A DNA stretch of 59,400 nucleotides, filler included, from Coriobacteriales bacterium (GTDB lineage: Bacteria > Actinomycetota > Coriobacteriia > Coriobacteriales > UBA8131), in the NCBI GenBank assembly GCA_031263105.1. It is 6 parts of 6 records of this genome, joined end to end, with 100 filler letters (N's around TTAATTAATTAA, not from the genome) between each part and the next. Parts side by side here need not be neighbours in the genome. Positions count along the whole stretch, not along the records: positions 9,870 to 19,156 come from JAISGJ010000200.1; 5 more parts are not named here. One strand, given 5' to 3'. The position numbers are program-made. Shown piece by piece: positions 15,001-18,000 of this stretch. Within the stretch, counting starts at the first letter, position 1. The number at the start of each line of letters is the position of its first letter.

Positions 15001-18000
15001 TGTCCCAGCCCGCGAACGCGTGGCCCGCGCGGGCGGGGGCGGCGGGGGCCGCCGCAGCAGCGCCGTGGGCGACCGTGCGAACCGCGAGCGCCGCGCCGTC
15101 CCAGCCCCTGAAGGCCACCGTGTGGGTCACAACCGTCCAGCGGGCGTAGAAGATCACGTCGCCTGCGACGGACGTGGCGGGGCCGACCTGCGCGCCGCCG
15201 GAGGGCGCGCTGAACCAGCCGTCGAACGTGTGGCCCTCGCGCGCGGGCACCGGCAGCGCCCCCACGAGGGAGCCCTCGGCGACGGCGCGCCCCGCCACGA
15301 AGGAGCCGCCCCGGCTGTCGAAGCTGACCGCGAACGTCGCCGTTCCCTGCGCGTCCTGCGGCAGGACGTTGTCGGAGCCGAAGCGCTTGACGAGGGCGCG
15401 GCGGGCGTCGGAGTCCGGGATGCGGTTGTTCCTGCAGTAGAGGGAGGCCAGCCTGGGGTTGCCCGCGACGTCCAGGGACGCGAGGTAGTTGCCGGAGCAG
15501 CGCAGGGACGCGAGGTCGGCGTTGCCCGACACGTCGAGGGAGGAGAGGAGGTTGTCGGAGCAGTCCAAGGTGCTAAGCGCGGGGTTCTGGCCCACGTCCA
15601 GGTTCGCAAGCGAGCCGCCGGAGCACTTGAGGGTTGCGAGCGAGGCGCAGCCGCTCACGTCCAGCGAGGTGAGGGAGTTGCTGCCGGAGCAGTCCAAGGT
15701 TGTCAAGGCGCTACACCCACTCACGTCGAGTGCGACGAGGGCATAGAGCGGACGGGCTTCGCCAAAGCCGAAGCCATACTTTTCGCCCGACAGCGATGTC
15801 AGCGCGGTGCAGCCGCTCGCGTCCAGTGAGAGAAGGCTGTTGGACGGGTAGCGCAGCTCGGCCAGCCTCGTGAAGCCGCTCACATCGAGGGAGTCGAGGT
15901 AGTTGCGCCCTGAGATGAATTCTCCGACATCAGTGTGAACGTAGGAGCTGCCGCAGTTCAGGTACTCAAGCTCGGTACATCCTCTCAGCCCCGGCAGCTC
16001 AGCGAAGCCGTTGCCGGAGCAGTCAAGGCGCTTCAGGCGGGTGTTCTTGCTCACGTCCAGCGAGGCGAGCTTGTTGCCACCGCAGTCCAAGTATTCCAGG
16101 TTGATGCAGGCGCTCACGTCGAGGGCAGTGAGATTGTTGGTGAACGAAACCATGTCTCCGATCGATTCGACTCCACCGCAGTCCAGATACTTCAGGGCGA
16201 CACAGGCGCTCACGTCAAGCGAGGTCAACTTGAAGCCCCGCAAGGAGACCGAGACCACGGGCTGCCCGCCGAGGGTCGCAGGGACGACGATGTCCTTGGA
16301 GTTCCCTCTAAGGGCGGTGACGTAGGCGCCGGCCCCGTACTTCGCGCTGCCGTCCTCGACGGTGTAGGTGAGGCCCTCCGAGCTCACCTGCGGCCAGACG
16401 CTGGCCGCCCCGAAGCGGCTGACGAGCGACTGGAGGGCGTCGGGGTCGTTGATGCGGTTGCCGGAGCAGTTGAGGATCGTGAGCGCGGCGCAGTCGCTCA
16501 CATCGAGGGCGGTGAGGTTGTTGTAACGGACGACATTGTAGTAGTCGTAGGGGTCTAAGTAGGAGATGCTGCCGCAATTCAAGTACTCCAGCTCGGTGCA
16601 GTTCCCCACTCCCGTCAGCGCGGCAAGGCCGTTGCCGGAGCAGTAAAGGCGCTTCAGGTGGGTGTTTACGCCCACGTTCAAGGATGCGAGGTCGTTGCTG
16701 GTGCAGTCCAAATACTCAAGCAAGGGGCAAGCGCTCACATCGAGAGAAGTGAGGTAGTTGCGGTTGTAATGGTAGTTCCAGTCGTTGTAGTGGCCGCAGT
16801 CCAGATACTTCAGGGCGCCACAGGCGCTCACGTCCAGCGAGGTCAGGCCGAGGCCCTGCAAGGCGACCGAGACCACGGGCTGCCCGCCGAGGGTCGCGGG
16901 AAGCGTGACGTCTTTGGGGCTCCCACTGTAGGAGGTGACGTAGGCCCCGGCCCCGTACTCCGAGCTGCTGTCCTTGAGAGTGTAGGTGAGGCCCGTCTCG
17001 CTCGCCTGTGTCGTCACGCCCGCCCCTAGCGGGCGTATGCCCGTCGGAGGCGCGGCGGTGGCCTCCGGTCCGTCGGCTCCAGAGACAGCAGGCCCGGATG
17101 CCTTTTCGACGGCAGGGACGTCGTCGGCAGGCGCTTCGGACTCGGCGAGGCTCCCAGCCTCGTCTGGCGCACCGGATGCCGCATCCTCGTCGACAACTGC
17201 CCCTGTGACGGGCGCTGCGTCCGGCTCCGCGTCGGATGCCGCGTCCGCTTCCGTAGAAGAATCGTCCTCCGGCTCCGTGTCGATTGCGACTGCCTCGATG
17301 CCGTCCGCTGTGGACGGGCCAGCAACGTCGCCCGCCTCCGCGCCGTAGGCGACAGGTGCGCCGCCGAGCGAGAGAGCAAACACGACCGCCAAGAGGCAGG
17401 CAAGCGCCTTGCGCGGGGCGGTCTTGTGCGATGCGGTGCGTGCGTGTTCCATGGTGACTCCCCTTCTGTTAGTGCGACTGTGCTTTCGCGGGCAGCAGGG
17501 GACGGGCACGGGCACACGTGCCGGAGGGCGCGTGTGCGGGCGGTGCCTCTGCGGTGCCGCGCACATTCTTTAACATAGGGTACCCCCCCCCCCCCCCCCC
17601 CCTGTCAAGTAGGTAAACGAGAAAAATAAAGAAATCCAAGTTATTGCGCTGCGCTTGCAGCGAGAGTCCGGGATCGCATGAGACACTATGATTGGAAAGC
17701 CCGTCACTCTGAACAGCATCTGTCTTATCGACAGAACCGCACCGGTTTGATAGTATGAAGTCAGAGAAGACGAGAGGAGCCCTCGTTATGCACATAGCAT
17801 TGAGCGACCTGAAGGTGAACGTCGGAAAGTACGTTGACCTGGCGTCCACGGAAGACGTGGTCATCACCAAGTACGGCAAGCCCGCCGCCAAGATCATCCG
17901 CTTCGACAAGGAGCCCTGGTACTTGAAGCGCATGCCCGAGGAGGTCACTTCCGTCGAGCAGCTGTTCGGGACGCTCCCGGGCGACATCGACCTTGAGGAT

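Follow-up and report, generated by a model that had tools for sequence, protein, structure and literature searches.

A run of 20 G's lies upstream of a gene for a secreted surface protein in a Coriobacteriales genome (GCA_031263105.1). Is this run the spacer of the gene's promoter, and would slippage in it switch the gene on and off? We addressed these questions in the window, the whole stretch of DNA analysed here (59,400 nucleotides, six parts of the genome joined by filler), and in the genome and sequence collections described below. The site lies on contig C237, whose position 1 is window position 9870, the offset used in the first-pass annotation.

A poly-G tract between promoter hexamers upstream of a surface-protein gene

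The TTGACA, poly-G and hexamer arrangement claimed for C237 can be read directly in the window sequence. On the minus strand, TTGACA (17608-17603) is followed by G20 (17602-17583) and TACCCT (17582-17577). On the plus strand, the C run is exactly 20 nt (17583-17602) and is flanked by tgtcaa (17603-17608) and agggta (17577-17582). The locus comprises the following features:

17609..17650, minus strand: A/T- and pyrimidine-rich stretch, TTTCTTTATTTTTCTCGTTTACCTAC, directly upstream of the -35 hexamer
17603..17608, minus strand: -35 hexamer TTGACA, abutting the tract
17583..17602, minus strand: poly-G tract, 20 nt as assembled (exact length uncertain), forming the whole -35/-10 spacer
17577..17582, minus strand: -10-like hexamer TACCCT, matching TATAAT at T1, A2 and T6
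17453..17570, minus strand: predicted 5' leader of ~118 nt, G+C-rich and structured (fold -54.6 kcal/mol, z -2.87)
17463-17458, minus strand: ribosome-binding site GGGGAG, 5 nt ahead of the ATG
14090..17452, minus strand: gene P0001, translated as a secreted surface protein of 1120 aa

The ATG (17452-17450, minus strand) lies 130 nt past the tract. The GGGGAG site is kept in paralogues as GAAGGGGA(G/A), and a CCCCUG block in the leader is predicted to pair with the Shine-Dalgarno sequence. A 37-nt leader block is identical in C237 and the paralogue on C86. An Rfam search of contig C237, leader included, returned no match at E<=0.1. T/C-rich stretches similar to TTTCTTTATTTTTCTCGTTTACCTAC stand ahead of TTGAC at C51, C67, C86, C94, C175 and C237, and the stretch at 17609..17650 is possibly a UP-like element. 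We infer that the site is a sigma-70-type promoter of the surface-protein gene, with a predicted transcription start. A consensus promoter scan that allowed spacers of 16-18 nt did not call TTGACA-G20-TACCCT. The same scan calls TCGACA-17-TAGTAT, on the plus strand, for a divergent antitoxin gene.

P0001 has the domains of a BspA/InlB-like surface protein with LRRs and Listeria-Bacteroides repeats (Flg_new): two LRR blocks, six Flg_new repeats and a signal-peptide-like N-terminus, the last judged by eye only. Its Pfam matches are Flg_new (E = 1.1e-67 in six stretches; 224.5 bits, cut-off 27), LRR_4 (1.9e-35; 120.5 bits, cut-off 27) and LRR_EndoS (3.3e-12). The genome contains approximately 12 paralogous surface-protein genes, eight of which have a long G tract at the same place. 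The downstream proteins carry Flg_new with LRR_4, LRR_5, Beta_helix_3 or PPC, in agreement with their earlier description. Secreted repeat proteins are the usual class of contingency genes, and the genes concerned here form a paralogous family whose products combine Flg_new and LRR domains with signal-peptide-like N-termini.

Long intact ORFs (703-1120 aa) are found in six of the eight tract-bearing genes. In the other two the ORF is cut short, to 43 aa in C86 and 46 aa in C237b, which could reflect decay rather than regulation. A decayed paralogue with its own tract lies on the same contig as P0001:

11558..11576, minus strand: second poly-G tract, G19, upstream of the decayed paralogue and preceded by GTGCAGCAT, not TTGACA
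10841..11436, minus strand: decayed paralogue, with a 46-aa N-terminal ORF (11296-11436)

Another frame of this paralogue holds an LRR-like fragment ORF of 174 aa (10841-11365), for which no Pfam match was found at E<=0.01.

The tract takes the place of the promoter spacer

We aligned 11 paralogous leaders. In this alignment the hexamer after the tract stands 5-7 nt upstream of a conserved AGGAAT/AAGAAT..GCGCGG block, and tract-free paralogues have TATAAT (C101) or TATACT (C97) in its place. Because the post-tract hexamer aligns with these elements, the tract corresponds to the -35/-10 spacer, as had been proposed; the enrichment of -10 elements after such tracts in other phyla (see below) also supports this assignment. 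The homopolymer at C237 thus lies between the -35 and -10 elements of a predicted sigma-70-type promoter. On C14, TTGACA is followed by an interrupted 16-nt G-rich spacer, apparently a variant of this promoter that does not slip.

The post-tract hexamers TACCCT (C237) and TACCCA (C86) are weak as -10 elements, and C175 has CCCAAT. The first-pass annotation had recognised four complete sites, all with a TAnnnT-like hexamer. The recount adds C86 (TTGACA-G20-TACCCA) as a fifth, and the C175 sequence departs from the TAnnnT pattern. We also considered a -10 element further downstream, either TATGTT or the AAGAAT of the conserved block. We rejected these candidates, as they would require spacers of 25-32 nt and as the C101 TATAAT aligns with TACCCT.

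Long G runs are concentrated directly after TTGAC(A)

We identified 184 G/C runs of at least 10 nt in the genome, of which 162 (158 in the earlier count) are at least 12 nt. Ten of the 162 directly follow TTGACA (5), TTGAC (3) or TTGACAGCA (2). This number of sites matches the earlier count, and the expectation from genome word frequencies is 0.14 rather than the 0.11 given before. In our mirror control, which looks for the same words at the opposite flank of each run, none of the 162 runs has one. Five further runs follow nTGACA, again as annotated. A gap in the lengths of G runs after TTGAC(A) is likewise real: runs are 1-5 or 17-20 nt after TTGACA, 1-7 or 20-25 nt after TTGAC, and 1-3 or 16-17 nt after TTGACAGCA. 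The ten sites are not independent. At least six of them share homologous flanks and are members of a single family of paralogous promoters, so the number of independent events behind the enrichment is below ten.

Internal G/C runs (55 in total) have a length mode of ~19, whether or not they lie in promoters, and tract length is therefore apparently not tuned to promoters. The 19-20 nt spacers may instead represent the length at which slippage settles across the whole genome, or a limit of the assembly. Gene calls based on GC3 minus GC2, a crude measure that served only to place tracts and is not a proper annotation, put 32 of the 55 internal tracts between calls and a further 15 no more than 250 nt from the 5' limit of a stop-to-stop ORF. 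By these calls, internal tracts are mostly non-coding.

Two-colour Illumina chemistry can also produce poly-G, which the assembler may then join into a contig. As the assembly was built from short metagenome reads, its tract lengths may be off by several bases. We examined three sequencing runs of the same study as Logan contigs: X1, the single run containing the stretch, and X2 and X3, which lack the organism. Contigs of X1 end at 17517 and resume at 17588, and none bridges 17518-17587. All three runs are rich in poly-G/C contigs, as a chemistry artefact would predict for those without the organism. Consistent with the same explanation, 74 of the 184 runs of at least 10 nt lie within 50 nt of contig ends, and some runs are C-run/G-run palindromes (for example, window 51269-51309). 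However, the run on C237 is internal, 1554 nt from the nearer contig end, and its unique flanks continue the homologous promoter-leader alignment. All five complete paralogous sites have the tract at this position, the mirror control is empty, and the same architecture is present in complete chromosome assemblies of other organisms. Many other runs in the assembly do fit the artefact pattern, that is, a contig end or a palindrome with no conserved context; the C237 run does not. An artefactual origin for it is scarcely credible, and only the exact tract length is doubtful at this site.

Orthologous copies were sought in metagenome contigs. A scan for CCTACTTGACA followed by G12 and a scan for a 35-nt leader block common to C237 and C86 each returned 0 matches.

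The same promoter design occurs in other phyla

TTGACA followed by G14 is present in 2 of 41 relatives and in 2 of 401 genomes of the phylum. It is uncommon at both levels, order and phylum, but not peculiar to the order, as it occurs in many phyla. As the first-pass annotation noted, G005, which represents another genus of the family, has TTGACA-G17-TAAACT and TTGACA-G18 ahead of secreted proteins. A collection of genome contigs yielded at least 115 stretches with TTGACA+G14 from many phyla, complete chromosomes included. Record titles among the matches listed include Clostridia, Bacilli, Treponema, Phycisphaerae, Kiritimatiellia, Lentisphaerae, Acidimicrobiales, Helicobacter, Coriobacteriales and others.

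Among the matches listed, 93 contexts are unrelated and from other phyla. TAnnnT directly follows the tract in 20 of these and begins 0-6 nt after it in 49, against a background of 1.6% per position. A hydrophobic N-terminus was detected by a crude test in 31 of 53 downstream ORFs among the matches listed, and the downstream genes may mainly encode secreted proteins, pilins and lipoproteins. Repeated, near-identical promoter copies in these genomes differ mainly in tract length, and lengths range across phyla from 14 to 30 (both among the matches listed). A literature search did not find a cross-phylum description of the whole-spacer poly-G promoter design. We tentatively propose, at somewhat less than even confidence, that whole-spacer poly-G promoters of 14-30 nt are a widespread, convergent contingency switch in many phyla, and that in the present genome they belong to an unusually large poly-G 'phasome' with at least 55 internal tracts. 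A phasome of this size would be possible because the genome apparently lacks MutS/MutL and NucS repair.

Spacer length, slippage and competing explanations

Several observations bear on whether tract length would set expression. Tract-free TTGACA-x-TAnnnT pairs in this genome peak at x = 17 (21 pairs), with 14 pairs at x = 16, 10 at x = 18 and 2-7 at other values; promoter strength here should therefore depend on spacer length. Poly-G spacers at the complete sites are all 19-20 nt. At these assembled lengths the copies are predicted to be weakly active or silent, and none is in the predicted ON state. We rejected an ON length drawn from other phyla, as the search pattern demanded at least G14 and so biased spacers long. 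Tract lengths among paralogues are G16, 17, 19, 20 and 20, in flanks that have diverged as well.

The MutS_V, MutL_C and NucS_C profiles have no match in this genome, a result that fits high slippage. Of 34 genomes of the family, none has a NucS_C match and 5 have a MutS_V match.

In the reading that we favour, slipped-strand mispairing during replication would add or remove G's in the tract. Each gain or loss would alter the distance from TTGACA to the -10 hexamer and their relative angle. Expression of each gene would then wander, at random and reversibly, between an active state, in which the spacer is near 17 nt, and a weak or silent one, and the population would carry mixed surface-protein repertoires. 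The weak -10 hexamers, the length mode common to tracts in all contexts, the lack of a complete site in the predicted ON state, the two truncated paralogues and the consensus scan that does not call the site weigh against this reading. Taken as a whole, with slippage, an on/off effect and a benefit to the organism all as predicted components, we consider this reading probable, with substantial room for doubt.

The tracts might instead be a mutational by-product, arising from expansion of non-coding G runs in the absence of recognisable mismatch repair. G-rich spacers like that of C14 would have been homogenised and expanded to ~19 nt, silencing the promoters of a decaying family rather than forming a switch. 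The length mode of 19 shared by the 55 internal runs in all contexts agrees with such a process, as do REP-like elements in which a G4-6 run has expanded to G17-21 at some copies. The lack of repair-profile matches, the two truncated paralogues and the spacing of the complete promoter sites, all off the genome's 17-nt optimum, point in the same direction. Against this, the TTGAC(A) association is strong and one-sided, and six of the eight tract-bearing genes remain intact. The design also recurs, with -10 elements and secreted products, in unrelated phyla, and is therefore hard to explain without function. Even as a by-product, the tract would still make expression heritably variable. We consider a mere by-product unlikely.

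Alternatively, the tract could be a fixed element of stable length that acts through its structure, as a G-quadruplex, rigid A-form-like DNA or a protein site, with 19-20 G·C pairs as the spacing at which these promoters function. Quadruplex formation by a G20 run is possible in principle. Spacers are tightly 19-20 nt at seven sites in this genome and 19-23 nt in Acidimicrobiales copies from complete chromosomes, in line with a fixed length. However, homopolymers this long are among the most slippage-prone sequences known. The variation among near-identical promoter copies in other genomes and the 14-30 nt range across phyla (among the matches listed) speak against a stable length, and the mode of 19 holds for non-promoter tracts too. 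We regard a fixed structural role as distinctly improbable.

Relation to known phase-variable promoters

By analogy with characterised systems, the C237 site is likely a new example of a known trick, a phase-variable promoter of the porA, tp0126 or vlp kind. The porA tract has ~9-11 G's and fills only part of the spacer, whereas the 16-20 or more G's here occupy the whole spacer, and switching here is predicted. The host also differs, being a high-G+C Gram-positive-type gut symbiont rather than a proteobacterial pathogen. In both Neisseria meningitidis porA and the present site, a G homopolymer lies in the sigma-70 spacer of a surface-protein gene; in porA its length is reported to set the -35/-10 distance and transcription (PMC7864442). 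Control by poly-G between -35 and -10 is described for tp0126 as well as for porA, and the optimum is given as 17 nt (PMC7864442).

Treponema pallidum tp0126, as well as tprL and tprE/G/J, similarly has poly-G between -35 and -10 and encodes an outer-surface protein (PMC7864442). For tp0126, transcription is reported to be best at a 17-nt spacer, and tract length to vary within isolates (PMC7864442). Treponemal tracts are 7-12 nt long, and their variation and reporter effect were measured, whereas both are predicted for the tracts described here.

The vlp genes of Mycoplasma hyorhinis have poly-A between -35 and -10 that fills most of the spacer. They resemble the present family in that paralogous surface genes each have their own promoter homopolymer, with independent switching and combinatorial variation described for vlp (PMC10502178). 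They differ in having an A tract rather than a G tract, a low-G+C genome, and lipoproteins rather than LRR/Flg_new proteins.

Gardnerella belongs to the same phylum by the usual classification and, judged by analogy, is a close precedent. Its genomes are reported to have a median of ~20 poly-G/C tracts, with ~70% in putative promoters, and the tracts vary between colony variants (bioRxiv 10.1101/2023.01.13.523976). As here, these tracts are tied to surface proteins with InlB B-repeat (= Flg_new) and other repeat domains; their mean length is given as 10 bp, versus 16-25 nt here (bioRxiv 10.1101/2023.01.13.523976).

The signature of TTGACA, at least G14 and a -10 hexamer could be used to screen metagenome-assembled genomes for candidate contingency genes. 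Short-read assemblies break at such loci, which are readily discarded as poly-G artefacts. If our reading is true, promoter-spacer phase variation would extend to Coriobacteriales-like gut symbionts and to G tracts much longer than those studied so far. If the tracts slip, an uncultured termite-gut bacterium would vary a dozen LRR/Flg_new surface proteins independently. Bet-hedging of this kind is known mainly in pathogens, and here it may be directed against phages, protists or the host.

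Anatomy of the window promoter

The site is a promoter with a poly-G spacer that belongs to a surface-protein gene and is one of a paralogous family. On the minus strand its elements read TTGACA-G20-TACCCT, with an A/T- and pyrimidine-rich stretch 5′ of TTGACA.

Promoter and leader elements, read from the sequence
17603-17608, minus strand (tgtcaa on plus): TTGACA, the -35 element
17583-17602, C run on plus, G20 on minus: poly-G tract of exactly 20 nt
17577-17582, minus strand (agggta on plus): TACCCT, a -10-like hexamer
17463-17458, minus strand: GGGGAG, Shine-Dalgarno sequence
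17452, minus strand: ATG start, 130 nt 3′ of the tract

The downstream gene (C237a, 17452 to 14090, minus strand) translates to 1120 residues. Its N-terminus is signal-peptide-like as judged by eye, and it matches the Pfam domains LRR_4 (1.9e-35) and Flg_new (1.1e-67, six stretches). The window joins several contigs with N's; the site's contig, C237, spans window positions 9870-19156, in agreement with the offset used in the first-pass annotation. The only sequencing run that contains the stretch (X1) is labelled termite gut metagenome; its contigs end at 17517 and resume at 17588.

The predicted leader (17453-17570, minus strand) is modelled to form a stable fold (-54.6 kcal/mol, z -2.87) in which GGGGAG pairs with CCCCUG, a block conserved among paralogues. 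As modelled, this fold may provide a second, translational control layer.

Neighbouring features
9878-13714, minus strand: gene cluster between the two surface-protein loci
17728-17756: promoter-like TCGACA-17-TAGTAT of the divergent antitoxin gene
17788-18437, plus strand: divergent toxin-antitoxin pair

The gene cluster looks defence-related. Its products are a 426-aa abortive-infection protein of the AbiH type (3.7e-20) and two further proteins, one with DUF4145 (247 aa) and one with DUF2971 (311 aa). The pair comprises a Phd/YefM-like antitoxin of 79 aa, which scores just below the cut-off (29.1 vs 29.8 bits), and a toxin-side protein of 137 aa with a PIN_3 domain (6.5e-18).

Paralogous promoters

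Querying the genome under study (G000) with the window gene's leader turned up 11 paralogous leaders and N-termini. ORFs were read at twelve loci: the eleven paralogues and an ABC-transporter gene on contig C223. A long G tract lies upstream in eight paralogues (C237a, C237b, C86, C175a, C175b, C227, C67 and C51; at a contig end in C175b and C227), and four are tract-free (C14, C101, C97 and C230). All leaders share an AGGAAT/AAGAAT..GCGCGG block, and the post-tract hexamer (TACCCT, TACCCA, CCCAAT, TATTGT, TATGCT or CATACT) is found 5-7 nt 5′ of it. At the same place, tract-free C101 has a perfect TATAAT and C97 has TATACT. This homology backs the -10 element proposed in the first-pass annotation better than the weak hexamers alone. 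In C14, TTGACA is followed by a 16-nt interrupted G-rich spacer and then CATACT, an arrangement that resembles a form of the tract promoter unable to slip.

Contig C237 also carries a second tract and a decayed paralogue, C237b.

11558-11576, minus strand: second poly-G tract, G19, preceded by GTGCAGCAT, not TTGACA
10841-11436, minus strand: C237b, 3′ of the G19 tract, consisting of a 46-aa N-terminal ORF and, in another frame, an LRR-like fragment of 174 aa

A REP-like repeat, roughly GCTCGG(G/A)ATGACAGTGGGGGTGTGAACAGTAAC, often occurs just 5′ of surface-protein promoters (C67, C223 and C101, with four tandem copies in C14). Its core, GACAGTGGGG, has ~1020 copies in 2.9 Mb, including window positions 6889, 7029, 23489, 27419, 27536, 30759, 30778 and 59134. 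Some copies carry an expanded G run of G17-21.

Enrichment of G runs after TTGAC(A)

The G000 assembly (250 contigs, 2.9 Mb, 64.5% G+C, 86% complete, 6.5% contamination) contains 184 G/C runs of at least 10 nt vs only 9 A/T runs of at least 8 nt. Seventy-four of the 184 are no more than 50 nt from a contig end, some as C-run/G-run palindromes; these contig-end or palindromic runs have the look of short-read artefacts or of breaks in the assembly. At window positions 51269-51309, C17 abuts G24 in a palindromic junction, as would be expected from an assembly join or an artefact of poly-G reads, and unlike the promoter tracts.

Ten of 162 runs of at least 12 nt directly follow TTGACA (5), TTGAC (3) or TTGACAGCA (2), against 0.14 expected from genome word frequencies and 0 in a mirror-image control. 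The enrichment reported earlier is confirmed, with the caveat that flanks are homologous among the sites (C51/C67; C86/C175/C237; probably also C53 and C94), and the ten therefore represent perhaps five independent events. Run lengths after these three motifs are bimodal, 1-7 or 16-25, in line with the previously noted gap.

Spacer length and possible slippage

Tract-free TTGACA-x-TAnnnT pairs in G000 number 21 at x=17, 14 at x=16 and 10 at x=18, with 2-7 at each remaining x from 10 to 26. Poly-G spacers are 19 nt at C51 and C175, 20 nt at C67, C86 and C237, and 19-20 nt at C223; the spacer of C97 likewise measures 19 nt. As assembled from short-read metagenome data, these spacers exceed the 17-nt optimum by 2-3 nt, and at such lengths the promoters are predicted to be weak or off.

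All 55 internal G/C runs of G000, in any context, share a length mode of 19. A slippage equilibrium common to the whole genome, or else a technical limit, may therefore account for the spacers of 19-20 nt. The main rival explanation, which we consider unlikely, sees the tracts as by-products of a genome-wide tendency towards G-run expansion, with the tracts silencing a decaying gene family. We favor the reading that the tract is a slipped-strand contingency switch, which we regard as reasonably probable; switching and its ON length, like the transcription start, are inferred.

Searches of the 86% complete G000 detected no MutS_V, MutL_C or NucS_C. Across 34 incomplete family genomes, G000 included, NucS_C was found in none and MutS_V in five (frames of 551-790 aa). 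As far as incomplete genomes indicate, post-replicative mismatch repair of every known kind may be missing from this lineage. Runs of G16 or longer occur in 11 of the 34.

Recurrence in other lineages

Among 41 relatives including G000, TTGACA+G14 occurs only in G000 and G005 (reversed control, 0), and among 401 sampled phylum genomes only in G000 and, at a contig end, G116 (control, 0). G005 carries TTGACA-G17-TAAACT 5′ of a secreted-protein gene and TTGACA-G18 ahead of another secreted protein. At the former, an overlapping TATAAT 5 nt further on makes the spacer 17 or 22 nt. A looser pattern yields one further site each in G005 and G003. Neither of two metagenome scans returned a further copy of the window promoter or its leader.

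We identified at least 115 TTGACA+G14 stretches across all species genomes. By record title, the matches listed include Clostridia, Bacilli, Treponema, Phycisphaerae, Kiritimatiellia, Lentisphaerae, Acidimicrobiales (complete chromosomes), three Helicobacter species, a Coriobacteriales MAG and others. With at least 30 nt required downstream, these listed matches gave 93 unique contexts; TAnnnT directly follows the tract in 20 and begins at offsets 0-6 in 49 (background 1.6% per position). Also among the matches listed, 53 of 70 contexts with at least 280 nt downstream have a Shine-Dalgarno-preceded ORF. By a crude hydropathy test, 31 of these 53 have a hydrophobic N-terminus, including type IV pilin-like and lipoprotein-like starts. 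Where promoter copies are repeated within those listed genomes, tract length is the main difference, as in one Acidimicrobiales promoter family with G20, G20, G23 and G16-T-G5.

Acidimicrobiales records from complete chromosomes (L023, L043, L090, L108, L061 and L092) encode a paralogous secreted-protein family (MERRSHFKS...). Upstream of each gene stands TTGACA-G(19-23)-TATTAG or CATTAT, and the start codon follows the tract by only ~18 nt. This family parallels the Coriobacteriales case in another class.

In the M. hyorhinis vlp family, a poly-A tract lies in the promoter spacer. This tract, present in each vlp promoter, switches the genes (PMC10502178). Both tp0126 of T. pallidum and porA of N. 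meningitidis are controlled by a poly-G tract sited between -35 and -10, and the optimum is 17 nt (PMC7864442). Gardnerella genomes have ~20 poly-G/C tracts each, ~70% in putative promoters and many ahead of genes for surface proteins that carry InlB B-repeat domains; these tracts differ between colony variants (bioRxiv 10.1101/2023.01.13.523976). On phase variation in Coriobacteriia, PMC8778435 deals with recombinases and retroelements, not homopolymers; PMC2831843 deals with tracts inside coding genes. We found no cross-phylum survey of poly-G spacer promoters in the literature searched.

Taken together, these scans show a whole-spacer poly-G design that is uncommon within each lineage yet recurs in many. 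The promoter type itself is already known; the recurrence of the whole-spacer design across many phyla is the newest aspect of these findings.
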